DNA of 64,000 nucleotides from Chiloscyllium plagiosum (Eukaryota): contig NC_057733.1 of assembly GCF_004010195.1 (NCBI RefSeq), positions 25,214,812-25,278,811 of the forward strand, read 5' to 3'. The notes beneath the pieces were generated by a model. That model saw nothing but the letters and a program-made list of their open reading frames with translations. It was not told the DNA's origin and did not search any database. Position 1 is the stretch's first letter; every line of letters begins with the position of its first letter. The position numbers and the translations under genes were made by a program. Of the stretch, positions 12,213 to 42,623 are shown piece after piece.

Positions 12213-12314
12213 GTAAGTATTCTTGGTGCATAATTTCTGCCATTTTTAGTATTTCACCAATATATGGTTTTACCATAAATTTTAAATGTTAACTGATATC
12301 CACATTTATTGCAG

Positions 12315-13582: not shown

Positions 13583-13716
13583 GTAAGTTTTATTTAATTT
13601 ACTTCCACTTGAAACAAAAGATTTTGCATGTTTCAGTTGTGTAAGTTGTCTAGTAGACATGTAGGAAAGAAAATATATGGACTGAGGGAAATCAAAATGC
13701 ACTAACAAACATTCAT

Positions 13717-14035: not shown

Positions 14036-14049
14036 TATACAAACACTCC

Positions 14050-15850
14050 TATTAGGAGCAGGAGTGGTCCACTCAGATGCTTGAGATTGCTCCATTACCA
14101 ATAAGGTCTGCAACCCTGCCTATCACTGATAACTTTCCACCTCTTTGCTTAACAAGAATCTGTTGAACTCTGCCTTAAAAATATGCAAGGATTTTGCTTC
14201 CACCACTTTTTTTGCAAAGTGAGCTCCGAAGACTCACAACCTTCTGAAAAAAACCATCATGTCTTTGTTTTAATTGAGTGGCATCCTGACCTTGAAAAAG
14301 AGATCCCAAGTTCTATTTTTTTTTCCAGAAGAGCTAACATCCATATCTAAAGTGTCAAAACCTCTCAAATACTTCATGTTTAAATCAAGTTACTGAATTC
14401 CAGTGGATACAAGCCTAGGCTGTCCAACCTTTCCTTATAAGACCACTTGCTTTGTGTCACCAATAAATTTGGCAACCATACCTTCTGTCTCTTCATCTAA
14501 ATCATTTAGTTAAATTGTAAACATTTGAAGTCCTAGCACTGATCACTGTGAAATAACATTCATTATGTCTTATCAACCTGAAAAAGAATCATTTATGCCC
14601 ACTCTCTGCTTTCTGATAGCCAAACAATCTACTATTCATGTCAGTAAGCCAGTGTCAGTTTTCATTTTCCACAATACTCTTTGATATGGTATCTTATCAA
14701 ATCCCTTCTAGGATTTTAAATACAGTGCATCCATCAGTTCCCCTTTATCCACTACACATGTTACCTCCTTTGAGAACTCCAGAGGATTGGTTTTCACAAA
14801 ACAATGTTCACATTTGATTAACCTTAACTTGTACAAATGCCATGCACTGATTTCTTTAATAATAACTTCTAATATTTACCTTGTTTAAAATCTAACTGGT
14901 CTGCAGTTTCTTACTTTCTGTTTCTCTCCTTTTTTGAATAAGGGACTTATATTAACTATTCCTATCTAATGGGACTGTCCGAGAATCAAGGGAATTTTGG
15001 AAAATTAAAACTAACTTGTCAGTGATCACTCTAGCAACTCTTTATCAGACCAAGGATGAAGTGCATCTGCCCCAGGCACTTGTCAGCTCAGAGCTCCAAC
15101 AACTTATTCAGAATGGCTTCTCTGGTGATTGAGATTTTCTGGAATTCCTCCCTTTCTCCATTTCCTGATTAATCACTGCTTCTGAGATCTGACTTGTATC
15201 CTCTTCAGTAAGGACTGATGCAAATTACCCATTCGATTCATCTGCCATATCTTTATTTTTCATTAAAAATTCTTCAGTCTCACTTTCTATTTGAACAATG
15301 CTGACTCTGTTAACTCTTGTTAAATATTTTCTTTACATACGTACCGAAACTCTTATTCTTTGTTTGCATATTTATGGCTAGCTTTCTTTCATCATCTAAT
15401 TTATCCCACTTTAATATTCTTTTTTCATTCTTTGATTTTCTTTGTACTTTGTCCAACCTTCTGACCTATAAATTATCTTTACACAATTATATGCTTTCTC
15501 TTTCAATCTGATATTACCTTTAACATTTCTGATTAATCACTGATGGTGAGTTCAGCCCTTGAATTTTTGTTTACTCATTGGAATTTATTTATTCTGTGTA
15601 TCCTAAAATATCCTCTTAAATGTCTACCAGTATTGATTTGTCCTTTAACCTGATTTGCCAATTCACTTTAGCTGTCTGTCCTTTCATGCCCCATAATTGT
15701 AAGTTTTTTTAAACAATAAAAATTGTACCCACTCCACTTTTCCTCAAATCAAATATAAAATGTCATATTATAATTGTGGCTACCTGAGGACATATTTGCT
15801 ATCAGACTATTAATCAATCCTATCTCATTGCACAAAGCCAGAAAATGCTG
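14050..15850 (-). mobile_element. Old degenerate CR1 LINE
   Basis: Decayed similarity to the other CR1 copies along its length; boundaries approximate. Confidence 0.65.
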
Positions 15851-16251
15851 TTATAGAATCGCAGAACTCTTCAAATGCAGAAGGAAGCAAGTGGGCCGAC
15901 TGAGTCTGTTCCACCTGTCCAATAGGTATTATGACTTAGTGCCTTTCTCCTGCCTTTTTCTTTATACATTATCTTTATTTAAATAATTATCCACTGTCCC
16001 CTTGAATGTCTCAATTAACTTGCCTCTATCACATTTCCTTGCCATGCCTTCAATATCTGAACTACTCATGTGAAGAAGTTTAATTTATCATTAAATATGC
16101 CTTTCAAACTTGATCTTTTTCACAACCGTTCACAGTTTCTCTCTATCAACTCTATCCAGCCCCCTCATGATTTTGACAATTTCTATCTGGTCTCCTCTTA
16201 ACTTTCTACTGTTCAAGGAGAACAGTGCCAACCTCTGTTGGTGGAACTGCT

Positions 16252-16570
16252 GACACGGTGGCACAGTGGTTAGCACTGCTGCCTCACAGCGCCAGAGACC
16301 CGGGTTCAATTCCTGACTCAGGCGACTGACTGTGTGGAGTTTGCACGTTCTCCCCGTGTCTGCGTGGGTTTCCTCCGGGTGCTCCGGTTTCCTCCCACTG
16401 TCCAAAGATGTGCAGGTCAGGTGAATTGGCCATGCTAAATTGCCCGTAGTGTTAGGTAAGGGGTAAATGTAGGGTGGGTTGCGCTTCGGCGGGGCAGTGT
16501 GGACTTGTTGGGCCGAAGGGCCTGTTTCCACACAGTAAGAAATCTAATCTCTGTAATCTCTGTAATCTAT
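16252..16570 (+). mobile_element. HE1-type SINE nested in an old CR1 fragment
   Basis: A/B boxes, V-domain body, (AATCT)-type tail. Confidence 0.92.
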
Positions 16571-16744
16571 CACTGTTGCTGAAGTTTCGCATCTCTCGAA
16601 CTATTTTTGTAGTTCACTTCTGTACTCTCCAATGTGTTCACATCATTCCTAATATCCTAGATCCAGAACATTAGTTGAGGTCTAGTTGAGGTCCAGTTGA
16701 GGTCTAACAAGTTCAGCATCACCTCCATTCTCTTGTACTACAAA

Positions 16745-17205
16745 TAAGGACATGCAAGTTCTGGGCCTCCTCCATTAATAAGGACATGCAAGCCCTGTGC
16801 CACTGCCAAATCCAAGCCACTCGACAACTGAAGGAAGAATGCCTCATCTGCTGCCTTGGGACCCTTCAACCATATGGCATCAACATCAACTTCACCAAAT
16901 TCCACATCGCCCTTCCCCCCACCTCATTTCAAATGCAACCCTCCAACTTGGCACTGTCCTCTTGAACTGTCCTGCATATCCATCTTCCTTCCCAACTATC
17001 CGCTCCACACTCCCCACCGACCTACACAATTGCCCCCCACCTGAACTCACCTATCACCTTCCCAGCTACCTTCCACTCTCCCACCCCCATCCCCTATTTC
17101 TCTCTCAACCCCCTTCCCCCTCCACATTCCTGATGAAAGGCTTATGCCTGAAACATTGACTCTCCTGCTCCTCGGAAGCTGCCTGACCTGCTGCCACACT
17201 TTTTG
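16745..17205 (+). mobile_element. Penelope-like 3' fragment (GIY-YIG end plus decayed hammerhead)
   Basis: KDMQVLGLLH...LGTLQPYG coding remnant; CTGATGAAAGGCTTATGCCTGAAAC at 17130. Confidence 0.75.
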
Positions 17206-18245
17206 ATCCCTATTAATAAAGCTGAGGATACTGTATGTTTTACATACTGCTGTCCCTACCTGTCCTGTACCTTTGAAGATCTGTACCAATATCCATTTAG
17301 GTCATGCTGCTCCTGCACCCCCTTTAGAAATGCGTCTCTTATTTTAGCTGTCCATGTTCTTCCCGCCAAAATACATTGCCCCACTCTTCTCTGCATTGAA
17401 CTTTATCTTCCACCTGTCTGCTACTTCACCAATTTGTCTATGCCCTTTTGAAGTTCAACACTGATCTCCTCACAGTTTATAATTCTTCCATGTTTTGTAT
17501 TATCACAAACTTTGAAATTGTCCCTTGCACATTAAGATCTAGATATATATTAGGAAAAGAAATATTCCGATATTAACTATTGCGGAACCTCTAATACAAA
17601 TCTTCTTCCAGTGTGAAAAACATCCATTGACCATTATTCCCAGATTCTGATCACTCAACCAGTTTTGCATTCCCACTGCTACCAACCCTTTTATTCCATG
17701 AGCTACACCTTTTCTCACAAGTTTGTTGTGTGGTACATTATCAAATGTCTTTAGAAAGTGTTTGTATATGCCACATCAGCAGCATTACCCTCATTGACCC
17801 TTTCTATTACTTCCTTTAAAAACCCCCGCATGTGACTTAAACAACAAGTTCTCTAGAAGTTTATATCGGCCTTTCCTAATCAGCCCACGTTTTTCAGGTG
17901 ACTTCCAATTCTATTCTGAATAATTCTTTCGAGACACTTCCTCACTACTGAAGTTAAACTGGTCTATTTTTGTGGGTTTATCTTAATTTTTTTTTAGCAA
18001 AGTCATGATGTTTGCAATTCTCCAATTTCCTGGCACCACCCCAAGACCTGGAAGACTGAATGATTACGGTCAGTGCCCCTGCAATTTCCATTCTCACCTC
18101 CTTTGTAACCTTGCATATTATCTTAGGAAACCATTCCGAACATATTCTATGAACATCTTATCCAGGCTACTTTTGTCCATTTGAGTTTTCCATTCTCTCT
18201 GTAGATTAAATCTCCCATGGTTATCACAGTGCCCTTTTGACAAGC

Positions 18246-18462
18246 AAAAAGGAGAAAGTGAGGACTGCAGATGCTGGAGATCAGAGCTGAAAAATGTGTT
18301 GCTGGAAAAGCGCAGCAGGTCAGGCAGCATCCAAGGAGCAGGAGAATCGACGTTTCGGGCATAAGCCCTTCTTCAGGAAGGCTAATGCCCGAAACGTCGA
18401 TTCTCCTGCTCCTTGGATGCTGCCTGACCTGCTGCGCTTTTCCAGCAACACATTTTTCAGCA
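18246..18462. mobile_element. Penelope-derived fold-back element with perfect 77-bp inverted repeat
   Basis: Arms 18286-18362 and 18385-18461; near-perfect 13-bp TSD CCTT(T/C)TGACAAGC; hammerhead core on the minus strand at 18349-18377. Confidence 0.85.
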
Positions 18463-20589
18463 CCTTCTGACAAGCGCTCATTATTTCTTGTTTTATCCTC
18501 TCCCTCATAAATGTGGTTGCTGATGGATATTTAGATTTAGATTTAGACTTTATTGTTACATGCACTCAAGTACAGGAGCACAGTGAAAAGGTTTCAATGT
18601 GGCCACACACTGTGCCATCTTAGTACAAAAACCAAGGTAGAAAGAAATAAGGAACAAAGTTAAAAGTTAAACGTAACAGTCACCCTTATTATTGAAAAAA
18701 GTAAAATTTAAGTTAAACATTGCAGTCCTTCTTAGTATTAAATTGAAAAATAAATAAATAAAGCTAAGAATGCAACCATTGTAAGGGATCTGTATACCAC
18801 TTCCACAAGATTTTTGCCTTTTTAATTTCTCATTTCTACCCAAACTGTTTCCACATCACGTAGAGCACTATTTAACATTGCTTGTTTCTTCAAGGCAGAC
18901 AGCTGGAAAAAAATGTTAAAACTAATCTAAAGTAAGGAAATTCCAAGGTACTAGCTTCTCTGATGATTGAAGGCAGATAGTAAATGTTATAACAAATCAG
19001 CATCTCTTTAAATTAATAGCTATAACTTTTAATTGAGATATTATTATTGGCTGCAGAAGGTAATATAGCAATGAGCAAGTACAGCAAGGGAATAAACTCC
19101 TGAGTTTTAAGTGAATGCATTTCATTGAGATGGAACACAAAACATAGTGCTTTGGTATAAATATATATTCTGTATTTAGTGTGGAACTTCCCAATATGTT
19201 ACTGGCTGGAGAAAGTTGGGTAATGTTCAAGTCCCAGGCATTAACAGCTTTCACCATGAGCAGCACAAAAAATTCAAACTCCACTTTCCCTAACTGATTC
19301 AGAAATCCCCTTGGTAGAGATTTTGTTTATAAAGCCAAGTACATGCCAAAATGAATTATTTTTCATGCGCACTAATTTCATTTTCATTGGATCTACACCA
19401 CCCAGCCTGATTTTTGTTTTTCTGTAGTTGGAACCAGTGTCAGTTAATAGTGTCAGAAAAATGATTACCATTATATAGATTTATTAATAAAAGCATTAAT
19501 CACTGTCATTTTGTAAATGTGATGCTTTTTAAAAAATGTATGGAATCATTTTCTGTACTCCTGAAGCTCTTAAGAAAGTTGCTTAGATCACTGTCCTAAA
19601 TTTCTGAGCGATTCAATATGGCAAGAAACTCAACTCCCTCAAATCCGGTGACTTAAGTCTCGGACTAAGCGAGATTAGAAACTCAACAATATGGCCAAGG
19701 TGATGGAAGGCTCAATGGCTCTTGATCTGATGTGAGCATGTATAGAGCAGACTGCTCAGAGTGGACATTAATGGCTAGTGATGTCAATGGAGAAAAGAAC
19801 AGGGTCCCAGCTTGGAGCTAGAGCTATTTTAAAGAGGTGTCTATTACAATGCAGAGTAGAGCCAGAAGCTCTCAGCTGCTAAGATGGAGTTTGAGATCAG
19901 TTAACGTCATTATTAACTTAAAACTGCATTTGATTGCCATGTGACATGCAGGTTACAGGAAATTACACAGTCAGTTTTTAAAATTATATTTGCAATCTCT
20001 CAGCAATAGTGAACCCAGCATCTAATGGGATACTAATTTGTTACTAAGCAATACTTCGTCCCCTGACAAAGCACAACATGAATCAAACTGAACCAATACC
20101 AACATCAAAATGTCTTTCTTCTCTGCTTATTAAAATATGGAGTATCTGTTGCATAAGTTAGACTACAAGAATTTTTCTATATTTAAGACCTTAGTAAATT
20201 AGTAAATAATTTCTGCTTCTTATTAGCAGATTCAGACAACAAGCTCTTGTCCTGACTCAGCATGTTTGGCTGCCAGGTGGACATGCTGCTAACATTCAAT
20301 AACTTCCTGTCATTTGTTTTCCTGTTTCCTGTGTCTGAATACTTCTTGTTGATTGAATGCCACTTATGACAATGTGGCCAACAGCAACATCTAGTCATAT
20401 GGCAGAAATTCCAAAATGGAATTAGTTGTAGTCAGCACTTAATGCAATTAACTCAGGGCATTTAAACTCACAATTTAATATAATTTGCTCCATTCTGATC
20501 TCAATGACTGGTGTTTGAATTAAAGCTTTAGGAGTGCATGATATAAATTCGGTAATCAAAAGATCTCAATCATGCATGTCTGATTTCAG

Positions 20590-20741
20590 GATTGGAGTGT
20601 CCCAACAATGAAACATTCTCTCAGTCAAAGGAAGAAAAGATCAGAACAATTTTTGGTATTCATTTATCTCTGGGATTAATCATAGTCCTTTTAATACTTT
20701 TGGCACTTCTGGTGGCGTTTTCATCAAGCAAATTCGTCAAG
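20590..20741 (+). CDS. Gene A exon: stalk and transmembrane segment
   Basis: TTTCAG acceptor, phase 1 in frame with the IgC exon; RLECPNNETFSQSKEEKIRTIFGIHLSLGLIIVLLILLALLVAFSSSKFVK; donor AAG|GTATTA. Confidence 0.8.
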
Positions 20742-21023
20742 GTATTATATCCATTTTGTTCATGGTAAAAGCAGAATTGTTGCTGCTTAAGATTCTGTTT
20801 TCCTTCACCAATTTTAATTCAATGTTTAAATACATTACGCTAATGTTTGAAAACCAGGGTCGGAATAAGTTACTCTGCTGGCCATTCCAAATTCCCTCTT
20901 GCCCCCAACCAGCCGGTAATTTTTGGGTGGGTTGGGTGTCTCAGTGGGAGGGTGGTTGGTTTGATGGCAGGCAAAACCTAGACCACATCAGGGTTGTTGC
21001 TAGCCTGTCCATAGAGGAGGTTA

Positions 21024-21321
21024 TGATTAGATTAGATTACTTACATTGTGGAAACAGGCCATTTGGCTCAACAAGTCCACACCAACCCTCCAAGGAGCAA
21101 CCCACCCAGACCCATGCCTCTACATTTACCCCTTCACCTAACACTATGGGCAATTTAGCATGGCTAATTCACCTAACCTACACATTTTTGGATTGTGGGA
21201 GGAAACCCACGCAGACACAGGGAAAATGTGCAAACTCCACACAGACATTTGCCTGAGGTGGGAATTGAACCTGGGTCTCTGGCACTGTAAGGCAGCAGTG
21301 CTAGCCACTGTGCCACCGTGC
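21024..21321 (-). mobile_element. HE1-type SINE
   Basis: Reverse complement of the HE1 head and tail. Confidence 0.9.
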
Positions 21322-21689
21322 AACAGGTAAGCCAGCTTGGCTCACAGTGGCAAAAATTGGGCGGAGGATGTAGTTTCCTCACTGGGTCTCATCTCACATT
21401 GAGCACCCACCATCTCCAACCCCACTCAAATTCTGTCATACACATGTGCAGCTGGCCTAAGCAGGAAGGCTGTCTGTCTCTGGATGGTGTGATGGGGAGG
21501 GGGGGGGGTGGAATTGGGAAAGCCCACCATTACATTCTACCAACTGTGCAAAATTGCACTATCCTCCGTACCTGTCAAAGTGGCCTCTCCTCAATGTATG
21601 GGTCAATACAGTAAGGCCCAACCATCATTGACAGTGAAAATTGGGAATGCACAAGAAACTAGAACTGGTGCATTGTAGCATTCCAGAGG

Positions 21690-21990
21690 CTTTAAGGATG
21701 GAAGGGATCACATGGATATGAAGGCTTGAAGATAGGAAAGGATTTGAACATGAACTTAAAACTTTTAACTGAGAATTGTGAGCCAGTGTAAATCAGGGAA
21801 CATATGGGTGATGAGTGGGCAGTATTTGATTTTAGTTGATTCACGGAGGCCAAAATGACTGGACATTTATGGAGGATGGAAGACATGTGGCCAGCTGAGA
21901 AAGCACTGGGATAGTCGAGATTGCAGAAAACTAAAGTGGGTATGAGAATTACTGCAGCAATTGGATTGAGGTAGGGACAGAGACAGGGAG
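21690..21990 (-). mobile_element. L2 LINE fragment
   Basis: ILIPTLVFCNLDYPSAFSAG resembles the L2 ORF2 motif LIHAFVTSRLDY. Confidence 0.6.
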
Positions 21991-22299
21991 CACTGCACAG
22001 TGAATGAAAAGGATATTCCAACTGGAGTCAGTGGTAATAATCAACAAATGGAACCGTGTTTGAATTTCATTTACTTTAGCTGAAAAAGCACTACATTGTA
22101 ACTGCAGTGTCCCCGGTAGCTGGCTGAGATTAATTGATCTAATTTTAACCATTACATTTGATCTTAACTCCTCTCTACTTGACATTGGAATTGTCCACCA
22201 GAGATGTTCACTTTCACCAGAGATGTTCACCAGAGATATTAAAGCTTTCAGGAGCTAAAGGGGACTAATTTTAATTGACAATCTGTTATTTTCCAAGCC

Positions 22300-22640
22300 A
22301 TGTTTGGCACAGTGGTTAGCACTGCTGCCTCACAGCAGGTTTGATTCCAATGTTGAGTCATTGACTGTGTGGAGTTTGCACTCCCTGTGCCTCTGTGGGG
22401 TTCTGTCGAGTGCTTCGGTTTTCTCCCACAGTCAAAAAATGTGCAGGTTAGGTAGATTGGCCATGCCAGAAGAGTTGCCCCATAGGCTCCAGGGTTGTGC
22501 GGGTCAGGTGAATTAAGCCATGGGAGATGCACGGTAATGGGGACAGAGTGAGGGGATGGATCTGGTTGGGATGCTGTCTGGAGGTTTGGTGAGGACTTGG
22601 TGAGCTGAATGGCCTTTTCCCGCACTGTAGATGATTCCAC
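22300..22640 (+). mobile_element. HE1-type SINE (diverged)
   Basis: GGCACAGTGGTTAGCACTGCTGCC head and CR1-like tail. Confidence 0.85.
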
Positions 22641-22786
22641 TACATAAAACTAAAAAAAGTTTTGATAAACACTAATAGAACAGCTAGAGTTTATCTGCTG
22701 TAGACTGTTATTTGATACATAATGTTGTACATGATTGCATAACTATTGCTAACATAAGTTACTTGAATCCTTCATTTTCTCTAAAG

Positions 22787-22855
22787 CATTCATACGAGCG
22801 AAAAGAATCAGCGTCACCTAATTTAATAGATAAGCAACTCTTTCTGGATATATAA
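22787..22855 (+). CDS. Gene A terminal exon: cytoplasmic tail HSYERKESASPNLIDKQLFLDI
   Basis: Pyrimidine tract plus weak AAG acceptor, phase 0 matching the TM exon; AU-rich 3' UTR with AATAAA at 23231-23236. Confidence 0.55.
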   Translation, partial: HSYERKESASPNLIDKQLFLDI

Positions 22856-24806
22856 GCTGAAATAAGAAGGACGGCCTTACCTTTTACGAACAAACTTTAT
22901 TTCCAACGGATAATGCAGACTGAAGACGGCCTGGAATGACATTGATCTTATTAATCAATTTTCTACTAAATGCAATTTCTGTGAAAACATTGTATCAAAT
23001 GATGTTAAAAAAACACTTCGTAGAAATTTACCTGTTTCTAAAAGGTATGCAAGAATAATCATGAAAAATATGAAAATAATTTTCCATATGACCACTGAGA
23101 AAAATTGTTATAATCACAATACAGTTATAACTACATTTAATGAAAACCACTGTCCTTGTTATTTGCATGGTTAGATTTCTTGGAATTGTAGTCGACTTTT
23201 CATGACAAAAATAGTTGTGATGATTCATAAAATAAAACGTTTTGCAATAATCCGACACCATGTTCAGAAGTTTTTAGTTATAAATTCAGATTAAGTACTT
23301 TTCATTCCCAGCAAACTGGAGTGGAAGTTTTTCTGTTAGTGTTTCATTGCAAATGTCAGTGTCCAACGGATATCTTGGAATCTTGGAATTTAATGGTTCT
23401 AAACTTCTGATCTGTGTAGGAATCCCTATTTCTGACCCAGATCAGACAAAATTTTGCCTCACTATAAAAAATATATCTTTCTACTTTTCTGCATTTTTGG
23501 TTGTGAACTGAAGTGATAAAATGGCTGTTTTAAAAACCAAGGATGTGGAAGGGATCATGGCAAATTTTGAAAGGAAGTTACTGAAACACATTCTCAGTGG
23601 TATTTACATTGCTGCTTTGTTTCAGCAGTGGAGGAAGCAGAGAGGCTGGCACCAGGGAATGTGTACACATAAGATTCAGTCAGCAACAAGTAGCTGATTG
23701 GTTCGAGAAGTTCTGACCAGCTCTGGATGATAAAGGCCTTCTGCCAGCCAATGACTCTACTCGTTAAATCTCAAAGCCCCTTATAAAAGTTATCATTGGC
23801 TTCTGGGTAGCCGAACTAGGTTTGGGTATGAACAACATTGCCAGAGATCTTCAGGTCATCTGGAAGAGGAGGTGGTTTGTCTGTCTGCAGGAGAACATAT
23901 TTGAAACCTGAAGAAAGAGAGTTTATTTTCCCTCACCAGTTGCTGTAAACTGTTGCTTTTAACCAGTAAACTTTATAATTTATGAACAGGTCTCTCCATT
24001 CCGTTCACAAAGAAGTGAATAATATCTGATGAAGAAAAATTGAAGAACAGCAAATCCTGCCCAGCAATTGGATCATCTTAATACATCCTGTGGATGCAGG
24101 CTATTGAACACCCCACACCCATGACACCAATTTTTTTTGACTGTCTGTATGTGAATGTTGAGATACTTTTGTAAGGGGGTTCAAGTTTTAACTATTAGAG
24201 TTATATGTCAGCAGTTCATTGTTGCATACCTGTGTCAAGTCTTTTTTTTAAATAAACAGTCATTCATATTAAATATAGAATCCTGGTCCATATTTTCTGT
24301 TTGCCTGGTTCTAGAGAGACAGATAAATGGGAATTTTGCATACTTACTTTGATGAAATGTTTAATTTTTGCAATGTTTTTGGGAATAATGAGGCTGGATT
24401 TCCAGTGTGTTACTCCAGTATGTCATGACATACCAACATCCAGAAGAGTTTTCAGGACAGAATTTGAGACAAGAGCCTTCCCAGCTGAAGCGATGCAGAC
24501 CAGTCCAGTTCAGCAAATCCACACAGGCAGCAGCAGAGTGGATCAGCACTGAATCAGCGCCTTTTTTTTCAGCAGTAATTGCTATATTCTGTGGTTTGAA
24601 GTGCCTAAAGCCAGTTTGACTACTGAGGGAAGGTAAATTTTTACAATAAGCGAGGGGTTTGGGTGTTGGTGTGTAACTGTGAGTGGTGCAGCTGGCATGT
24701 GGTTAGAGGAATAATATTATAGGTTGTGGGTACTACCAGTACCAGATGGGTAGGAGTAGGGTCTGAGATGGCTGAGGCATGCAGTGCAGTGGTGGGTGGT
24801 TTTTTT

Positions 24807-25130
24807 AGATTAGATTCCCTACAGTATGGAAACAGGCCCTTTGGCCCAACAAGTCCACACCGACCCTCCAAAGCGTAATGTACCCAGACCCATTCCCCTA
24901 TATTTACCTCTGACTAAAGCACCTAACACTATGGGCAATATAGCATGGCCAATTGACCTGACCTGCACATCTTTGGATTGTGGAAGGAAACCGGAGCACC
25001 CAGTGGAAACCCACGCAGACACGGGGAGAACATGCAAACTCCACACAGTCAGTTGCCCAAGGCAGGTATCGAATCCAGGGTCCCTGGCGTTATGAGGCAG
25101 CAGTGCTGACCACTGAGCCGCCCTGCCACC
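24807..25130 (-). mobile_element. HE1-type SINE
   Basis: Reverse complement of the HE1 head and tail. Confidence 0.92.
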
Positions 25131-25842
25131 CATGTTGGGTGGTTGTGATCTGAGAGGTGGATGTTGGAGGAATCTATTGGGTTTGGGGGGAAGTCAGGGT
25201 TCAAGTTAGGATTGGGGGTTTCAATATCCATGTGAGTCATCAGGAATTGGAATCGTATTGACGTGTAGAGTTCAGATCCAGGTGGTGTCAGGTGTTAGTT
25301 TGTGGGTGTTGATGGACCCAGGAGGATGGGTCAGGTATCTGGGGACAGTTGGTGGAGATACAATCTGGCAGTGTCAGTGGTGAGCTGGATGTGTCAGTTT
25401 TAACATTAGCTGGGAGTGAGAGCCACATTTATTCTGGCTAACAATTATTCCTCCAAAGTCACTGACTCTAACTCTGATTCCAGAAGATGGGTAATTGATA
25501 TCTGAAATTTCTACTCCTGGGTAACTTCCACAAATTCAACTACACCTATTGGAAGATTTGGACCACAATGACAATTTTGGAGTGAGCAATGACTGAAATT
25601 TTATCCCGTCATCATGCATACAATTGGAAGCTTCACTGGAACAGGTTTGGCATTTTGCCCAGGTTATTGATATAAATATTGAGAAGCTGAAGCTTTGCTT
25701 TATATTCCTGGAGTAAATGGCTAGTTATGTCTCACCAAACATAAAGTATCCTCTGCAACTATAGTTTATCAACAATCCCCTGACTATTATTAAAATGTTG
25801 CATCTAAGTTTTCACTCTTCCAACTTTGCTGATACTTCTGCA

Positions 25843-26075
25843 GAAGACAAAGTGAGGACTGCAGATGCTGGAGATCAGAGTCGAGAGTGTGGTGCTGGAA
25901 AAGCACAGCAGGTCCAGCAGCATCAGAGGAGCAGGAGAATCGACATTTCGGGCATAAGTTCTTCATCAGGAATGAGGCTCATTCCCAATGAAGGGCTCAT
26001 ATCCAAAACGTCGATTCTCCTGCACATTGGATGCAGCCTGACCTGCTGTGCTTTTCCAGCACCATACTCCCAGAT
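25843..26075. mobile_element. Penelope-derived fold-back element
   Basis: Inverted arms, decayed hammerhead cores, 14-bp TSD CTGATACTTCTGCA at 25829-25842 and 26076-26089. Confidence 0.82.
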
Positions 26076-26509
26076 CTGATACTTCTGCATGTAACCATCA
26101 ACTATTTTCTAGAAGTCCATGTAGACAATATTAATGGAAACTTCTCTATCTGTTATGGCAATGACTTCCTTGAAATGTTTGACTAGATTAGTCAGATATA
26201 ATCTATCCTCCATTATCCACAATGACTCAAGGGATACATCTTGAAGTGTTCAGCCACTGTCTCTAATGACAATGACAAGTTTGCAATGTTTCCTGTTAAA
26301 CTGATAGCTTCCAATTTTTCTTTACTTTAACGTCAATTGTTTCTAAAACAATGGGATAAAACATGCTGCTTTCCAATCCATCCAGCAACTCTTGAACATA
26401 GACAGCTTGGGAAAATTATGATGGAGACATTTGATTTTCTTCCTTGCCCATTTAATTTACATTATTCATAGGTGGGCTAGCCCAGATTTCTGTTTGGTCC
26501 CTATAAAAC

Positions 26510-28205
26510 CGATGTACAGCATGGAAACAGACCCTTCGGTCCTCTGGCAGCTCATTCCATACACTCACCACCGTATGCATGAAATAGTTGCCCCTTAGGT
26601 CGCTTTTATATCTTTCCCCTCTCACCCTAAACCTATGCCCTCTAGTTCTGGAGTCCCTAAACCCAAGGGAAAAGACTTTGTCAATTTATTCTATCAATGC
26701 CCCTCGTGATTTTATAAACCTTTATAAGGTCACCCCTCAGCCTCTAACGCTCCAGGGAAAACAGCCCCAGCCTATTCAGCCTCTCTCTATAGCTCAAATC
26801 CTCCAACCCTGGCAACATCCTTGTAAATCTTTTCTGAACCCTTTCAAGTTTCACAACATCTTTCCAATAGGAAGGAGACCAGAATTGCATGCAATATTCC
26901 AAACGTGGCTTAGCCATTGTCCTGTACAGCTGTAACATGACCTCCCAACTCCTATACTCAATACTCTGACCATTAAAGGAAAGCATACCAAATGCCTTCT
27001 TCACTATTCTATCTACCTGCGACTCTACTTTCAAGGAACAATGAACCTGCACTCTAAGGTCTCTTTGTTAGCAACACTCCCCAGGATCTTACTATGAAGT
27101 GTATAAGTCCTGCTCTGATTTGCTTTCCCAAAATGCAGCACCTCACATTTATCTAAATTAAGCTCCATCTGCCACTTCTCAGCCCATTGGCCCATCTGGT
27201 CAAGATCCTGTTGTACTCTGAGGTAACCTTCTTCACTATCCACCACACCTCCAATTTTGGTGCCATCTGCAAACTTACTAACTATTCCTTCTGTGCTCAC
27301 ATCCAAATTATTTATATAAGTGACGAAAAGCAGTGGACCCAGATCCGGTCCTTGTGGTACTCCACCGGTCACAGGCCTTCAGTCTGAAAAACAACCCTCC
27401 AACACCACCTTCTGTCTTCTACCTTTGCACCAGTTCTGTATCCAAATGGCTAGTTCTCCCTGTATTCCATGAGATCTAACTTTGCTAACCAATCTCTCAT
27501 GGGGAACCTTGTCATACGCCTTACTGAAGTCCATATAATCACATCTACCGCCCTGCCCGTATCAATCCTCTTTGTTACTTCTTGAAAATACTCAATCAAA
27601 TTCATGAGGCATGATTTCCCACACACAAACCCATGTTGACTCTCCCTAATCAGTCTTTGCCTGTCCAAATACATGACAATCCTGTCCATCAGGATTCCCT
27701 CCAACAACTTGCCCATCACTGATGTCAAGCTCACCAGACTATAGTTCCCTGGCTTTTCCTTACCACCTTTCTTAAGTAGTGGCATCACGCCAACCTCCAG
27801 TCTTCTGGCACCTCATCTGTGACTATTGATGATACAAATATATCAGCAAGAGGCCCACCAATCACTTCCCCAGCTTCCTACAGAGTTCTATGGTACACCT
27901 GATCGGGTCCTGGGGAATTATCCACACTTACGTATTTCAAGACATCCAGCACACCTCTTCTGTAATATGGACATTTTTCAAGATGTTGCCACTTATTTCC
28001 CCACATTCTATATCTTCCATGGCCTTTTCCACAGTAAACACTGATGCAAAATACTCACTTAGTATCTCCCCCATCTCCTGCAGCCCCATACATAGGCTGC
28101 CTTGCTGATCTTTGAGGGACCCTATTCTTTCCCTAGTTATCCTTTTGCCCTTATTTATTCACAAAAACCTTTTGGATTCTTATTAACCCTATTTGCCAAA
28201 GCTGG
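26510..28205 (-). mobile_element. CR1/HER1 LINE, ORF2 RT fragment
   Basis: GVPQG, KFADGTKIGG, PGNYSLVSLTSV motifs. Confidence 0.93.
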
Positions 28206-29339
28206 TTTCAGCTCAACTGGAGTGTGGTAGTCAAACTGATTGGTTTTGCATCTATAAGTCTGGGTTTGAGGGTTAGCATGTTATGAAAGTCACAATCAGA
28301 GAACGATTAACTGGTTACCCCTGCATTACAGGTGAAGATCTTTTCTGATTCCGAGTGCTGCAATCCAATTATAAAGGAAATGAGAACATCAAAAGGATTC
28401 ATTCTCACTCAGAATGCTGAAATTCTATTATGATCAAAAGAAATCAGAACTATAGAATCTCAACCAATCGACAAATTAAAGATCACAAAACCAATCCTTC
28501 AACTGCTTTGCTACTGGTAACCTTTACTGCAACAGCTGCAATGTCTAACTACCTGCTCTTTATGCATAATTCAGAAACTGACCCTATTCTTAAATTTCTA
28601 TCTTTTGAACCAACCTCTTATTTCTTGGCCGTATATATGTGTTGACTTACTATTTCTTCACAGACTATTTGATAATTAATAAACTCACTCCTTGCTAATT
28701 CAATAAAGCCTGATTAAATTGGCTCATTTTAAAACATAAATGTATGTAAGTCTAAAAGAAAGATATCCACAAGGGAAAGAATCCTTTTTAAATTAATCTT
28801 TGTGCAACAAGGTGGTGTGTGAGGAAAGAAGGGGAAACAGTTGATTCCTCCTTATTGGGAAACTTACAGTTTGGGGTATTCCCTTCTGGAACTCTCGGTC
28901 ATTGGGAATTTCACCGAGGGTCTGGTTGGAACACAATGCAGAGGACACCAGTCTGTGGTTCGATTTACTTTTCAATATAGAAAGCTGAATAATTTCATAA
29001 AAGCATGCTAATTCCATAGATTTAAGGAATCTGAAGCTAACAGAGAATGCTGGAGAAACTCAGCCGGCCTGGCAACATCTGTGGAGAGAGAAACCGAGTT
29101 AATAGTTTGAGTCCCGTGACCCCTTCTTCAGAACTGAGAAGTTAAATTTTGAACAGTTTACCAACCACCTTATAAAATTCGGGTTTCTTAAATCCAAGGA
29201 CATCTAACCCAATGAAGACTGATATTCCACTTTCACGCTGAAATTGTATTCTCTAAGCATTAAGCAATTCGCAGATTAGAATCAATGTTATAAATGAAAC
29301 CATATACACCACAAGATTAATGAACGTCATTTTCAAGAA

Positions 29340-30130
29340 ATCGGCTTTCATTTATCTGGAAAATGCGAGGCGGGTCCAAGGGTTGATCTGATGCTGACTT
29401 GAATCAGCAAAAGCACGGAGTTTAGGGTATATCCCCAAAACGTAAGATCAACCCATCGTTTGAGGAAGAGTAAAAGATTAGGAGTGCTCCTTTAGCACAT
29501 TTCGGAACTAATCTCCAGAGATAGGGAAAGTACGGATGGACAGAATACAGTACAAACTTCCCCAGCAGGAACAAGTCGCCTGAAGTTAACACAGCCGGGT
29601 ATTTCCCAGCGACAGTTGCTCCCAGTTTCGTCTCCTGGAATAGTTCAAGATTGGATCTTTCAATCCTGATATTTTGTGGAAAATTAAGTAAAGGGCCGAA
29701 GAGTTTATCGAAAGCCCGATGAACAATATTGCTGGCGGATATTTTCTGTTCACCCGGAATACTTTTCTTTGGAGAGGGATGAGTCATATCGAAACTAAAA
29801 GTTACAAAGAAAATAAGGAAGAGAAAACGGAGGGAGAACCGGCTGCTTGCAGAGTTCATTTTGAACGGAGCAGTGAACAGAAAAATGGTGAACAGAAATA
29901 TGACCGTTGCTCCCTGTTTGCTGTAACACTGGACACCAGGAGCCGGGCTCTTTCCCAGACTGGGCAGTGGACCGAGCTCTGAGCTGCACTCGCTCCCCGC
30001 AGATCCCCGGGTTCAGCTGAGCTGCTTTTGGACCGAGATCCCTGGACCGAGAACTCAGCAGTTCTCCAGGTATCGGATTTTGAATGATGACTTGGATAAG
30101 TTTGAGCCTGGGCTTGATGCGTTTTTATTT
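29340..30130 (+). promoter_or_regulatory. CpG-rich putative promoter/first exon of gene B with AICE/ISRE and kB-like motifs
   Basis: Strong CpG enrichment; TGAGTCA-TATC-GAAA 29780-29794 running into GAAACTAAAAGT; GGGTATTTCCC 29597-29607; candidate donor CAG|GTATCG at 30070. Confidence 0.6.
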
Positions 30131-31573: not shown

Positions 31574-31637
31574 ATGGTTTCATACTCTACAATAAGACTC
31601 CTTCCTGTCATCTTATGCAACATACCATCTGTATTTG
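31574..31637 (+). CDS. Gene B exon: signal peptide (MVSYSTIRLLPVILCNIPSVF)
   Basis: CCTTAG acceptor ending at 31548, ATG 25 nt into the exon, phase-1 GTAAGT donor, 93-nt intron to the V exon. Confidence 0.8.
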
Positions 31638-31730: not shown

Positions 31731-32057
31731 ATTTTGTGATATTAAATTGTCAGTCTTCAGTGACAGGAATATTTAATGAAGATACCAAACTACCATGCAC
31801 ATTGAATTCAGATTCAAGTATCAATTCAGCACACATTGAACTTTGGAAAAAGGAAAATGATGGAAAAGAAAAAATTGTGTTTAACTTCACAAAAAATGTC
31901 AGTGAAGTTCAGGGTCGGATTAAATTACTTCACCCAGGATCTCAAGACATCTCACTGGTGATCCAGAACACACAGGTGTCAGATAATGGGACATATCAAT
32001 ATTTTTTGGAGACAGCTATTGGTCACAGATTGCATGAGATTAAATTGAATGTCAAAG
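31731..32057 (+). CDS. Gene B exon: B7-like IgV domain lacking the F-strand Cys
   Basis: T-tract CAG acceptor, GTAGGT donor, phase 1-1; VTGIFNEDTKLPC...GRIKL...DISLVIQNTQVSDNGTYQY. Confidence 0.92.
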
Positions 32058-36153: not shown

Positions 36154-36450
36154 CTCCATATAGTTTGCCAAAAATGGCCTTACTCCAAAATATCACAAGA
36201 AGAATAAGAAGTGCCGACCTTATTTGTGAAACAACTGGATATCCACTCGCTCAGATTCACTGGTTTGTTTATGAGAAAAGGAATCTCACAGCCAGAGCTA
36301 AAACTCATAGTGTTCTGACTCCAGAAGGGCTGTTCAGTGTCACCAGTACACTTCACATCGAAGCCATGGAAAATGCCTTAGAAGGCAATTATACGTGTGC
36401 TGTGTTCAATTTCAAAAAAAATGATATTGAGGTGCGGAACCAATTTCCAA
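36154..36450 (+). CDS. Gene B exon: B7-like IgC domain (B7-H3/PD-L1-like)
   Basis: TTAG acceptor, GTAAGT donor, phase 1-1; APYSLPKM...LIC...GYPLAQIHW...EGLFSVTSTL...NYTCAVFN. Confidence 0.92.
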
Positions 36451-36717: not shown

Positions 36718-36864
36718 TTCCAATTATAGACACACCTACTACAAATCGGCAAAGTGAAAGGAAAAAATCTAAAATTCTCACAGCTGTCTTTGTCATTGTT
36801 GGAGCACTGGCAACTGGAATAATAATTTTGGCAATTCATCGATTCAGGAAGACCATCTATTCAG
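36718..36864 (+). CDS. Gene B exon: stalk, transmembrane segment and start of tail
   Basis: TTTTCAG acceptor; ILTAVFVIVGALATGIIILAI followed by HRFRKTIYS; phase-1 donor CAG|GTATGA. Confidence 0.88.
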
Positions 36865-37044
36865 GTATGATGGTAATATAAATGTTTCCAGTATCTGCAG
36901 AAACTCTTCAGGCTTTACAAATGAACAGAAGAGGTTGATTATCAAGCCTCCTTTGTTATTCAATTAACTTGAGCCTTAACTCCATTTTCCAAACTACTGC
37001 CCACATCCAATGAAGAGACCAAAAATCCAACCCTCTTAAATACA

Positions 37045-37920
37045 GGAACATAAAACATAGAAAATTGGTGCAGGAGTAGGCCATTCAGCCCTTCAAGCCT
37101 GCTCGACCATTCAATATGACCAACGGTTGATCATGCAATCTCAGTATCCTCTTCCCAATTTCTGTCCATATTCCTTGATTCTTTTAGCTGCAAGGGCCAA
37201 GTCCAGCTCCCTCTTGAATATTTCTTATGTATTGGCCCAACAGCTTCATGTGGGAATGAATTCTGCAGGCCCACAACCCCCTGAGTGAAGAAATCCTTCC
37301 TGACTCAGTCCTGAATGGCTTATCCCTTATTTTTAGACTGTGACCCCTAGTTCTGGACTTCCCTGTAATGGAGAACTGTCTTCCCACATCTAGCATGTCC
37401 AGTCCCTTCAAGATTTTATATGTTCCGATGAGATCCCCCCTCATTCTGCTAAAATTGCAGCAATTACAAGCCCAGTCGACCTAGTCTTTCCTCATATGTC
37501 AGTCCTGCCATCCCAAGAATCAGTCTGGTAAACCGTAATCCACTATGAAACATTCAGAATACTCGGGGCGAAGAGCTCCTAATGTTTGCAACACTTTGGG
37601 TGAAGACATTTATCCTTCATCTCACTCCTAATCCCCTGCAACTGTAACTCCCTGTTCTAAACTCCCCAGCTATCAGAAACAATCCTGTCAAGCCCCTTCT
37701 CAATCATGCTTTTATTAATGAGATCACCTCTCATTCTTCTACACTTCAGAGAATGTGGACACAATTTACTCAGCTTCTCACTCTTGGCAGCCATCTCATC
37801 CTAGGTTCCAATCTAATTAGTTTTCATGATAATGCTAGCAATGTAAGTATATCCTACAATAGATTTGGAGAACTAATTGCACATGGTATTCCAGGTGTGG
37901 TCGAACTTAAACCCAATTTG
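37045..37920 (-). mobile_element. CR1 LINE 3' fragments
   Basis: MRGDLIGTYKILKGLD motif. Confidence 0.8.
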
Positions 37921-37997
37921 AATGGCGTCAAATACTGGCTGTCTTTCTAAATGCATTATATGACATGGATAAATTCTTAGTTAAATTACTGCTAGTG

Positions 37998-39771
37998 ATG
38001 TCGTACAGCATGAAAACAGACCCTTCAGTCCAACCCGTCCATGTCGACCAGATATCCCAACCCAATCTAGTCCCACCTGCCAGCACCCGGCCTATATCCC
38101 TCCAAACCCTTCCTATTCATATGCACATCTAAATGCCTCTTAAATGTTGCAATTGTACCAGCTCCACCACATCCTCTGGCAGCTCATTCCATACATGTAC
38201 TATCCTCTGCGTGAAAACACTGCCCCTTAGGTCTCTTTTATATCTTTCCCCTCTCACCCTAAACCTATGCCCTCTAGTTCTGGACTCTCCGACTCCAGGG
38301 AAAAGACTTTGTCTATTTATCCTATCCATGCCCCTCATAATTTTGTAAACCTCTATAAGCCTCCGACTCTCCAGGGAAAACAGCCCCAGCCTGTTCAGCC
38401 TATCCGTGAAGCTCAGATCCTCCAACCCTGGCAACATCCTTGTAAATCTTTTCTGAATCCGTTCAAGTTTCAGAACATCTTTCCGATAGGAAGGAGACCA
38501 GAATTGCACGCAATATTCCAACAATGTCCTGTACACCGCAACATGACTTCCCAACTTCTGTACTCAATACTCTGACCAATAAAGGAAAGCATACCAAACG
38601 CTTTCTTCACTATCTACCTGTGACTCCACTTTCAAGGAGCTATGAACCTGCACTCCAAGGTCTCTTTGTTCAGCAACACTCCCCAGGACCTTACCATTTA
38701 CAAGAATCCAGAGAAGGTATATTCCTGTCAGGGTGAAAGGGAAGGCTGGTAGGTATAGAGAATGCTGGATGACTAAAGAAATTGAGGGTTTGGTTAAGAA
38801 AAAGAATGAAGCATATGTCAGGTATAGACTGGATAGATCGAGTGAATCCTTAGAAGAGTATAAAGAAAGTAGGAGTATACTTAAGAGGGAAATAAGGAGG
38901 GCAAAATGGAAACATGAGATAGCTTTGGCAAATAGAATTAAGGAGAATCCAAAGGGTTTTTAAAAACATATTAAGGACAAAAGGGTAACTAGGGAGAGAA
39001 TAGGGCCCCTCAAAGATCAGCAAGGCGGCCTTTGTGTGGAGCCACAGAAAATGGGGGAGATACTAAATGAATATTTTGCATCAGTATTTACTGTGGAAAA
39101 GGATATGGAAGATATAGACTGTAGGGAAATAGATGGTGACATCTTGCAAAATGACCAGATTACAGAGGAGGAAGTNNNNNNNNNNNNNNNNNNNNNNNNN
39201 NNNNNNNNNNNNNNNNNNNNNNNNNNNNNNNNNNNNNNNNNNNNNNNNNNNNNNNNNNNNNNNNNNNNNNNNNNNNNNNNNNNNNNNNNNNNNNNNNNNN
39301 NNNNNNNNNNNNNNNNNNNNNNNNNNNNNNNNNNNNNNNNNNNNNNNNNNNNNNNNNNNNNNNNNNNNNNNNNNNNNNNNNNNNNNNNNNNNNNNNNNNN
39401 NNNNNNNNNNNNNNNNNNNNNNNNNNNNNNNNNNNNNNNNNNNNNNNNNNNNNNNNNNNNNNNNNNNNNNNNNNNNNNNNNNNNNNNNNNNNNNNNNNNN
39501 NNNNNNNNNNNNNNNNNNNNNNNNNNNNNNNNNTTTTGTCATTTACATGAATGATTTGGATGTGTGCATAAGAGGTGCAGTTAGTAAGTTTGCAGATGAC
39601 ACCAAAATTGGAGGTGTAGTGGACAGCGAAGAGGGTTACCTCAGGTTACAACAGGATCTGGACCAGATGGGCCAATGAGCTGAGAGGTGGCAGATGGTGT
39701 TTAATTCAGATAAATGCGAGGTGCTGCATTTTGGGAAAGCAAATCTTAACAGGACTTATACGCTTAATGGT
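37998..39771. mobile_element. CR1/HER1 LINE with inverted 5' segment (minus 37998-38698, plus 38700-39771)
   Basis: Opposite-orientation ORF2 segments that abut in element coordinates at AATGGT. Confidence 0.8.
39176..39533. other. Assembly gap (358 N)
   Basis: Run of N. Confidence 1.
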
Positions 39772-41380
39772 CATTCAGGTATGACAACAATAACATGACA
39801 TTTGCACATGTGAAACAGATAGAAGACTGAAGCTGTGAATTTTACCAATTTTGTCACAAACTTCAAATGTGGTTGCATTGTAGTAAAAACAGAAGTTCAG
39901 AGAAAGCCAGAAGATCTGAGACAATTTGTGGAGAGAGAAGCAGAGTTAACATTTTAAATCCAAAATGACTTATTCAGAACAAAAACTAGCTGGAAAATGA
40001 TAGTTGTTATGCTGCTGACAGAGGGGAAGAAGGAGCTAATGGAACACATGGTCAGCTTGTCCAGAGCAAAAGACAAAGCAACCTCTAATAGTCGTAAAGA
40101 AGAGATAGAGATGTAAAATGGGAATAAATGGAGAAAATAGGTCTGCTGTGTTGAAAGATAAGTCAGTAAGAAGCAAGTAAGGTGTGCCTAGAGGAAAGTG
40201 GAGGGACTATAATCAAAATGGAGGACAGAGGATATCAATATTGAGTCGAAGAAGCTGAAAAGTACCTCGGTGGAAAATGAGGGATATTCCCCCACCTCCT
40301 TTGGAACATTGTAACAAAGACAGGACAGAAATATTAGCATGGAATGATGGGAGAATATGAGCACCTGTCTCCAGAGATGCTGCGAGACCCACTGAGTTTC
40401 TGCAATACTTTCTGTTTGTTTTTTATTTCAGATTTACAGCATCTTGATACAGTATTTTGCTTTTATTACTTACATTGTAGATGATTAAAGTTGCTCGGTG
40501 AAAATTGTTTGCTAATGTGCCTGTATGAATCAATCTTCACTTGCCACCCTGTCCCACCTAGAAAGTACAGGAAAGCTCCAGGTAAATCAGATAGAACTCC
40601 TCTGAAAACATATGCAGCCAAATAAGCCTGAAAGTCAGCAGTGACAATCCACACTACATTCTCTTAACTTGAATGTTTTGTTCAGGGGAAAGCAGATCAG
40701 GAAGGATGGAAACATTATTTATATAAAATCTGGAGCATTAAAGTAATTCATTCTCTTGCTCTGGTTGCCACTGGCTAAATTGACATTTATTATCCACTCT
40801 TGGCTGCCCTGGGAAGATGTTGATGGGCCCTCTTTGCATTCTGACATGACTGACTGGCCTACTGGACTAATTCAGAGTTCAGTTGAGAATCAGCCACATG
40901 TTGGGCAGGTAAGTTACGGACTGTAGGTTGACCTTCCTAAAAGAGGATTGCTGAACTGATTAGGTTCCTGAGCAATGGCCTAAAATTAACCAAAACCCTT
41001 ACTGATACCAACCATTTTTAATGTTGAATTCAATCTCACGCTATTAAATTGGGAATTGAACTCATGTCCTCAGGGTTACTATTTCAGCAATTTGAGTGAA
41101 TAATTTATTATAGCCGCTACCATATCATACACAGCTAGGTCAAGTTCCAGAACTAAAAATATATGTGGCAGATGGGTGAAAATACTTGTTTTAAATACTT
41201 TGTCTTACCTTTTTTTAATTTTGAACAATGTATTAGGATTACATGTTCATTGTGGAAGCTATGTGCATCGATTATAACTGTCAATAATATCATGAATCAA
41301 GTGGAAATTTCCACACAATTCTTATTATAATTAGTATTACAGAAATAAAAAAATGACTTTGCTTTTTAATTTTGTTTCAG

Positions 41381-41409
41381 CAGTGAGAAGAGAATCTGAA
41401 ATGCCAATG
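41381..41409 (+). CDS. Gene B cytoplasmic mini-exon (AVRRESEMPM)
   Basis: Strong pyrimidine tract with CAGCAG acceptor, phase 1 in, GTAGGT donor phase 0; completes TIYSAV. Confidence 0.68.
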
Positions 41410-41492: not shown

Positions 41493-41507
41493 ATACTACA
41501 TGAATAA
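41493..41507 (+). CDS. Gene B terminal coding exon (ILHE stop) followed by 3' UTR
   Basis: Long pyrimidine tract plus CAG, 83-nt intron; AATAAA at 42404-42409 and 42424-42429. Confidence 0.62.
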   Translation: MLHE

Positions 41508-42149
41508 GGAATTGCTGCTTAGCATTTGGCTGAGGTGAATAATTCCTACTTCTACCTTTGACAACTGCACTGATATCATAGGCTCATTTAAAAATATTTT
41601 TATAACATTATAATTTGAAATTAGATTATGTGAACAATAGAAGGCTGTTTACTAGCATTATTTAAAGCACTGTCACTTTCCAATGATTATGCTTACAATG
41701 CAATTGTTCAGCATAGTAATTCTGATTTACCACTGTCACTGTTCTATGCTTTTTGCTTAGTTTTCTGCTAACACCAGTAATCGTTGGACCTTTAAAACAG
41801 CAAAGTGCTAGAAACTAGAGAATTTGACCCTCAATTCTGGCTGGTGTCCTCTGAAGACGTTTCACTATTTTACAACTGTGACAGTTTATGGATCAGTGCG
41901 TGACATCACAGTGTTGTGTCCGAGAAGAAGGAAATTCTTGGTCCTGTGTACTTTGAGAAATCACATCCTACTGATTAATGATTACAGAATTATTGTGAAA
42001 GGTTTGTGCCCTGGACTCTACTTTTCACTTTATAAAAAGGGAAAGATGTGAATGTTGGAAACCTGAAACAAAGGAAAGATTTCCCTTCTTTACAAAGTTG
42101 GAAATGGATGATTATGTTAACACATGACTTGCTGTTAGTGACATAAACA

Positions 42150-42270
42150 CATTTAGAGGGATATGGGCCAAATACTGGCAAATGGGACTAGATTTATCTT
42201 GGATGGGTCAGCATGGACGATTTGGTCTGAGGAGCCTTTTTGTGTGCTGTACATCTCTTTGACTCTAAAT
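42150..42270 (+). mobile_element. CR1 3' tail fragment within the putative gene B 3' UTR
   Basis: GAGGGATATGGGCCAAAT...GTGCTGTACATCTCT. Confidence 0.8.
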
Positions 42271-42623
42271 CAGATTGACATGTTGATTTGATATTCTGTT
42301 CTAATTGTTTTTGGATCTCGCAACAAGGGAGGTAAATGTAACTATGCTTGTTAAGTCAGATATATGCAAAATTCTTGTCATTTTAGTGTGTGTACTAAAT
42401 GTAAATAAACTCAATATTTTGTAAATAAAGATTCATGAGTTACATAAATATCTTTTAGTTGAATATTAAACTACTCATATGGTGTTGCTTTACTTTTGTG
42501 AAGGAGTTTTAAAGTTAACTTGCTCAGTCTTTCAGGGACTCTGCGTTGAACCTTATCAGAAATAATCTAAGTGATTTTCTCTGAGACCCCAACAGGTCGC
42601 TCACACAAATTTTTTGAACTCAT

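Follow-up and report, generated by a model that had tools for sequence, protein, structure and literature searches.

This study concerns gene B, which encodes a B7-like protein in a 64,000-nucleotide stretch of the Chiloscyllium plagiosum genome (NC_057733.1; hereafter the window, and coordinates are window positions on the forward strand unless a contig is named). Its cytoplasmic tail is read across a tandem splice acceptor, CAGCAG, at 41378-41383. Use of the proximal AG gives TIYSAV, which fits the consensus TxYxx[VI] of the ITSM (immunoreceptor tyrosine-based switch motif), and use of the distal AG gives TIYSVR. An initial annotation of the window had interpreted this acceptor as a three-base switch for the motif. 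We consider it reasonably probable that the acceptor shows a wobble in splicing, tolerated at a pair of Ala and Val codons that is old, and is not a switch built for the ITSM. As judged from sequence comparison, the NAGNAG acceptor is not tied to the ITSM, because the same pair of forms with and without Ala is annotated in two relatives having no Tyr at the site. In addition, the distal AG should be unable to form in four species carrying the tyrosine pattern YxxPhi, because they have a Leu or Ile codon at Y+3. From these two observations, the tandem acceptor is likely older than the motif and would be a product of the Ala and Val codons. The observation itself has been confirmed, and its interpretation as a switch is weakly supported.

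Splice junction and products of gene B

The six-exon model of gene B (31574-31637, 31731-32057, 36154-36450, 36718-36864, 41381-41409, and 41493-41507) is letter for letter XP_043570548 (P0016, RefSeq X1), a protein of 292 residues carrying TIYSAVRR. When the start of the fifth exon is moved to 41384, the model becomes exactly XP_043570549 (P0001, RefSeq X2), with 291 residues and TIYSVRR. An identical X1/X2 pair, differing by the Ala, is annotated in Chiloscyllium punctatum. Both gene B products are therefore already present in public annotation, and at the junction they read as the initial annotation had described. Features of the gene are as follows.

31574..31637, + strand: coding part of the leader (signal peptide), with ATG at 31574; exon model equals P0016/P0001
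31731..32057, + strand: IgV exon; Pfam V-set, exon model, and loose end of an X15 contig that reads its 3' end
36154..36450, + strand: IgC exon of B7 type; best solved relatives CD276, PD-L2, and PD-L1; joint 36450^36718 in runs X15, X4, and X19
36718..36864, + strand: stalk and transmembrane (TM) exon with a phase-1 donor, ending in RKTIYS plus one G; sequence, exon model, and RNA contigs
about 36774-36836, + strand: TM segment within the TM exon; sequence
36852..36864, + strand: 5' part of the motif, i.e., the T-I-Y-S codons and base 1 of the junction codon; Tyr277 at 36858-36860
36865..41380, + strand: intron of 4516 bases with fragments resembling long interspersed elements (LINE) and an N gap at 39176-39533; sequence
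41378..41383, + strand: tandem acceptor CAG/CAG; proximal AG, exon from 41381, YSAV; distal AG, exon from 41384, YSVR
41381..41409, + strand: 29-base cytoplasmic exon, with RRESEMPM encoded at 41386-41409; X15 RNA contig and exon model
41493..41534, + strand: last coding exon (ILHE, stop at 41505-41507) and start of the 3' untranslated region (UTR); joint 41409^41493 in X15
41535..41760, + strand: 3' UTR intron of 226 bases, donor 27 bases past the stop; X15 contigs
41761..42470, + strand: 3' UTR exon carrying A[AT]TAAA signals at 42404, 42424, and 42465; 712-base X15 contig

The TM exon ends with ACC ATC TAT TCA G, followed by the donor GTATGA, and the acceptor reads TTTCAG/CAG/TGAGA (41375-41388), so that CAG stands at 41378-41380 and again at 41381-41383. 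Two in-frame AGs lie three bases apart, which is the structure of a NAGNAG acceptor, and the exon end and phase are as described in the initial annotation. The distal AG is composed of the Ala GCA and Val GTG codons. With a rough matrix, the two AGs scored 4.2 and 3.7. The register of the proximal AG matches that of the paralogous genes C and D of this genome, which have the acceptor CAG/AAATT and no tandem site; the equivalent introns in these genes are 1379 and 1499 bases long.

RNA-type data came from four (X15, X4, X19, and X20) of 24 candidate runs, none of which is on record as RNA. A spliced X15 contig of 1024 bases with a depth of 185 joins 36450^36718, 36864^41381, and 41409^41493. 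The proximal, motif-forming AG at 41381 is thus the acceptor used in this contig, and the motif-bearing long form of gene B is expressed; it is probably the main form. Neither the distal joint 36864^41384 nor a joint to 40686 was found among the best 15 of 33 joints, and for the distal joint this absence is limited by the fact that rare variants are lost when contigs are assembled. One X4 contig terminates exactly at 36864, which is compatible with a fork of an unspecified kind at the donor. The raw-read run X19 has two reads on the upstream junction between the C and TM exons and zero depth over the 29-base exon, and nothing from run X20 aligned. Use of the distal AG is predicted by the annotated X2 models of the two Chiloscyllium species only. 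Splicing of the TM exon to 40686, which would have spoken against the proposal, was rejected: this acceptor scored 1.4 with the rough matrix, its joint was not listed, and X15 depth was zero in its bin.

Retention of the 3' UTR intron was also seen in X15, with depths of 243 and 52 for the spliced and retained contigs, respectively. By the 50-55 base rule, a 3' UTR intron this near the stop would not trigger decay. Within the long intron, at 39768-39783 and on the edge of a LINE-like fragment, 12 bases repeat the donor context of the TM exon (ATTCAG/GTATGA); this copy has no upstream exon and is probably due to chance.

Pairs with and without Ala at this junction are annotated in four genes of four species. 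In two of the proteins there is no Tyr at the site: the orthologue of the sawshark Pristiophorus, RRRFRP[A]VRRES, and a paralogue of the horn shark Heterodontus, RRTRLP[A]DRRQ. The presence of NAGNAG in other sharks was deduced from protein sequences. On this level, and assuming a shared intron position, a distal AG needs a codon starting with G at Y+3 and is impossible in four of the eight YxxPhi orthologues, which have Leu or Ile there (Rhincodon YSAL, Carcharodon YLAI, Cetorhinus YLVI, and Mustelus YTVI). For Heptranchias, the two Scyliorhinus species, and the majority of rays, annotation gives the short register alone.

Tyrosine motif and tail elements among relatives

In the long form, TIYSAV stands after the TM segment in a tail of 23 residues with a single Tyr, and there is no second ITSM or ITIM (immunoreceptor tyrosine-based inhibitory motif) for pairing with a tandem-SH2 protein such as SHP-2. 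Tyr277 is the eighth tail residue, seven residues from the membrane, and is flanked by basic clusters. Among 200,000 shuffles of the tail, TxYxx[VI] appeared in 0.5%, an ITIM or ITSM of any kind in 4%, and a YxxPhi pattern in 28%.

To place the motif in the family, 81 tails (about one protein per gene) were compared: 13 of shark gene B, grouped by likeness of the TM segment, 13 of other shark paralogues, 16 of rays, and 39 of bony-fish type, with names on 9 of these 39 rows only. The set left out TM-less proteins, fusions, gene-A-like proteins, and outgroups. TxYxx[VI] was found in 4 of the 13 shark gene-B tails and in none of the other three groups (0/13, 0/16, and 0/39, respectively), and shuffles give an expectation of 0.19 such tails over all 81. 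The four belong to two Chiloscyllium species, Hemiscyllium, and Stegostoma, three genera of one carpet-shark clade, and likely share one origin. The tail of the whale shark (Rhincodon), which is sister to Stegostoma in the tree, reads IIYSAL, with Ile in place of Thr. The remaining shark orthologues read NFYLAI, NFYLVI, NLYTVI, NAYAVR, NARAAR, NLYSAG, RWYPVR, and RFRPAV.

Lack of conservation of the tyrosine motif, which the initial annotation had named as evidence against its proposal, applies to the ITSM (4/13) and in part to YxxPhi, present at the junction in 8/13 shark orthologues across three orders. Tyr itself is retained in 11 of the 13 while positions -2, -1, and +1 vary. YxxPhi is not present in Heterodontus (YSAG), S. 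canicula, and Pristiophorus, nor in those forms that are annotated for S. torazame and Heptranchias. In most paralogues the Tyr position is occupied by another residue, mostly His and also Arg, Gln, Asp, or Leu, and it varies even between congeners (Y in S. torazame and R in S. canicula; Y or D in gene C). Gene C of this genome reads YPKI across the same junction.

A second element lies just downstream. RRESEMPM, encoded at 41386-41409, belongs to an RRxSxxP[ML] element common to shark and bony-fish relatives, and RRxS is a consensus of basophilic (PKA-type) kinases. The pattern [RK]RxSxxP[MLIV] occurs in 7/13 shark gene-B, 2/13 other shark, 0/16 ray, and 12/39 bony-fish-type tails; shuffles give 0.01 for shark gene B, 0.02 for bony-fish type, and at most 0.02 in any group, numbers to be read with the facts that the pattern was defined after viewing the data and that the rows are related to each other. 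Both gene B isoforms retain RRxS. The distance from RRxSxxP to the membrane differs by several residues across the family, which would fit a tolerance of plus or minus one residue. By this comparison, the tail element conserved from sharks to bony fish is RRxSxxP and not the ITSM.

Explanations of the tandem acceptor

A tolerated wobble would have arisen in the following way. The proximal AG would be the ancestral and main site. An ancestral exon start of Ala (GCA) and Val creates a second AG, which would exist only since the Ala is spelt GCA before a codon starting with G, and which may be used at times and lost in some lineages. Competition of near-equal neighbouring sites accounts for many NAGNAG variants according to passages of PMC1449888, and competition of two similar sites here would likely give the distal AG a minority of transcripts; its form appears to be the sole annotated one in some lineages. 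TIYSAV would then have come from a single late gain of Thr in one carpet-shark lineage, two residues before a pre-existing Tyr that stood three residues before the ancestral Val or Ile. The protein is likely a cell-surface ligand, the tail of which is probably regulated via the basic RRxS site kept by both forms. In its three-base, in-frame choice of one residue, the acceptor resembles those described in parts of PMC1449888 and PMC2699507; it differs in that, for some species, a short linear motif contains the residue that can be left out.

Several points weigh against the wobble. It rests on a protein-level comparison of orthologues, and the tree leaves the shark gene-B group as an open fork. 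Retention of Tyr while its neighbours vary suggests some selection on this residue and speaks against pure chance for it. An old NAGNAG is open to later co-option, and tissue-specific ratios exist for some NAGNAG acceptors, as part of PMC2699507 describes. Furthermore, phosphorylation-independent binding of SAP is conditional on a hydrophobic residue at -1 according to PMC12151841; TIYSAV has such a residue, together with an exact ITSM match and a SAP gene in the same genome.

Among the other explanations, the one that survives best is that YSAV is a working tyrosine sorting signal of the type bound by AP-2/AP-3 mu chains, which we regard as possible and rather doubtful. The long form would be internalised or endosomal, with the short form remaining on the cell surface, and the NAGNAG would thereby tune ligand density where both forms exist. 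The occurrence of YxxPhi in eight shark orthologues of three orders, of Tyr in 11, and of YPKI in gene C argues for it. In parts of PMC4584282, a spacing of 6-8 residues is given for lysosomal targeting, with a preceding Gly and acidic X residues, and one of 10-40 residues for endocytosis; Tyr277, as the eighth residue, falls within the former and below the latter, and the Gly and acidic context is missing. The pattern is also easily reached by chance, as the shuffles above show, is absent from Heterodontus, S. canicula, Pristiophorus, and the annotated S. torazame and Heptranchias forms, and in the AlphaFold model the TM helix extends through the motif, with modest confidence. Endocytosis, which the initial annotation had named as an equal alternative, may fare better than the ITSM, and a weak sorting role of the Tyr is possible.

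We think it unlikely that the carpet-shark long form carries a real ITSM recruiting SAP or EAT-2 (or SHP-2 once phosphorylated), so that a B7-like protein would send signals back into the cell that bears it, a signalling-dead form being supplied by co-option of the old NAGNAG. ITSMs of SLAM-family receptors and PD-1 lie further from the membrane than the gene B motif. The consensus of CD150, CD244, CRACC, and PD-1 is fitted by TIYSAV (PMC12151841 and PMC3958483, in part); these receptors have multiple or paired motifs in the same partial sources, unlike the single motif of gene B, seven residues from the membrane and between basic clusters. According to PMC3958483, single ITSMs are weak binders of SHP-2, and no binding of SAP or EAT-2 was seen with one ITSM of human CRACC. 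PD-1 motif regions are conserved across jawed vertebrates, whereas the gene B ITSM is limited to some carpet sharks. In favour of this explanation are the exact T-I-Y-x-x-V in four carpet-shark species of three genera, the fact that the form assembled from RNA is the long one, and the presence of SAP: its exon 1 at G000:C15 has SAP as the best PDB match (E 5e-18) and 93% identity to catshark SH2D1A, and PMC11372145 reports, in its section on cartilaginous fish, an sh2d1a-like gene as marker of a subset of T cells. A candidate EAT-2-like exon, located on C12, scores higher to SHP-2. Against it, a single origin in the 81 tails does not exceed what chance allows (expectation, 0.19), and the whale shark, sister to Stegostoma, has Ile for Thr and no possible distal AG. 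The full proposal, in which a carpet-shark B7-like ligand became a back-signalling receptor via an ITSM at a splice junction and co-opted the NAGNAG as a three-base on/off switch, is likewise improbable in our estimate.

Least probable, and in our view very unlikely, is that splicing to the distal AG scarcely occurs in vivo and the X2 models reflect a few stray reads, with in effect one protein and no switch: the proximal joint stands alone among the best 15 of 33 joints, and Hemiscyllium and Stegostoma, with the same Ala-Val, show long forms only among members listed. Against this are the annotated pairs in four genes of four species, the X4 contig break exactly at the donor, and the lineages noted above (Heptranchias, the two Scyliorhinus species, and the majority of rays) for which annotation gives the short register alone.

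The B7-like lineage and its tandem cluster

The assignment of gene B to B7-like proteins, already made in the initial annotation, holds: the protein has V-set and B7-type C domains (Pfam), a TM segment, and a short tail, which is the broad B7 architecture. With an alignment profile, the best solved matches were CD276 (E 1e-38 for the 4-Ig chain and 8e-20 for the 2-Ig chain), PD-L1 (9e-17), and PD-L2 (8e-15). The AlphaFold model (mean predicted local distance difference test score of 75) has a fold resembling butyrophilins and PD-L1. Gene B is one of four B7-like genes, A to D, forming a tandem cluster on contig G000:C24; the positions of the other three are listed below.

window 12140-13581: gene A
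G000:C24 about 25,286,000-25,291,000: gene C, about 37 kb downstream of B
G000:C24 about 25,322,000-25,327,000: gene D, about 73 kb downstream of B

Three other identities were rejected. PD-L1 or PD-L2, suggested by the IgC motif and RefSeq names, is excluded by a better PD-L1 copy on C2 in a separate clade, the V and C exons of which nearly match, when compared by eye, the shark PD-L1 sequences in the supplement of PMC12151841. CD276 is excluded by a copy on C40 with 52-68% identity to a CD276-type protein, also in a separate clade. SLAM-family membership, to which the ITSM and the lack of a V-domain Cys had pointed, is not borne out, there being no SLAM/CD2 chain among 55 PDB profile matches. 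RefSeq names for the cluster (CD276, PD-L1-like, and PD-L2-like) are inconsistent labels.

In the ectodomain tree (57 rows after prior removal of one; several long branches carry flags), the cluster forms one clade with ray expansions, coelacanth, bichir, sturgeon, bowfin, and teleosts (zgc:174863), with support of 100/99. The clade is set apart from PD-L1, CD276, and one butyrophilin-like row, which together with this lineage are all the B7 rows of the tree. On these sequences, the gene B cluster is a fish-restricted B7-like lineage common to sharks, rays, coelacanth, and ray-finned fish, and is neither PD-L1 nor CD276. With these two it shares the IgV-IgC-TM-short tail arrangement, as it does with PD-L2; it differs from CD276 and PD-L1 in being an orthologue of neither and in a V domain without the F-strand Cys. 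In gene B, this Cys is replaced by Tyr (DNGTYQY), so that the canonical disulfide between B and F strands is not available, and Cys28 and Cys44 are present. F-strand Cys is Tyr or Ile in all eight elasmobranch members checked and is kept in 3/5 bony-fish members, and the elasmobranch members have an extra Cys 16 residues before the B-strand Cys (Cys28 and Cys44, respectively, in gene B). This arrangement may possibly provide a non-canonical disulfide in the elasmobranch V domain. Zebrafish zgc:174863 and the 'CD276-like' proteins of sturgeon, bowfin, bichir, teleosts, and coelacanth are in the same clade with the same extra V-domain Cys, and many have RRxSxxP; unlike gene B, they have the ITSM in 0/39 tails.

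Our literature search found no paper treating this lineage as a B7 subfamily, most subscription and older papers on B7 evolution being outside its scope. The list of fish B7 genes in the part of PMC11599192 available omits it, and the corresponding part of PMC7720500 says of zgc:174863 only that it is an Ig-like transcript found in microglia/macrophages, for which no orthologue is readily assigned in human or mouse.

Several further features of the lineage were noted. About ten genes lie on one Hypanus contig as a ray expansion. Annotated TM-less isoforms (P0014, P0050, P0061, and P0067) in Hemiscyllium, Chiloscyllium, and Mobula would be soluble, and a teleost relative, si:ch211-241b2.5 (P0057), has the same ectodomain and a NACHT-type domain in its tail. 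For gene A, no TM exon was found in window 13582-29400 by tblastn and a hydrophobicity scan, although one is present in the orthologue of Heptranchias; a short exon that may be terminal, at 19428 (stop, AATAAA), would give a secreted form. Within 200 kb on either side, two crude rankings of exons and open reading frames, the first of which missed known exons, gave only the four B7-like genes and repeats, which is not evidence against neighbours; one candidate neighbour proved to be a LINE-like element. Near 1.40 Mb of G000:C24 there is an SH2 exon (L069), which we take to read like GRB2 and to hint at a region like human 17q25.

A likely promoter or 5' exon of gene B lies at 29786-30024, with 81% identity to a stretch upstream of gene D. 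Within it, GAAACTAAAAGT, which we presume to be an IRF-site-like sequence, is retained at 29791 in gene B and in the matching region upstream of gene D. A kappaB-like site is found at 29597. These putative sites suggest interferon induction of gene B.

If the switch were true, it would represent a very compact splicing control of an immune motif and the acquisition of a receptor's function by a ligand of B7 type. The evidence favours a lineage-specific gain of the motif on a splice wobble that was already there. A more lasting result, as judged from the sequences, is that the cluster is neither PD-L1 nor CD276 and is marked by an altered pattern of V-domain Cys and a conserved RRxSxxP tail.

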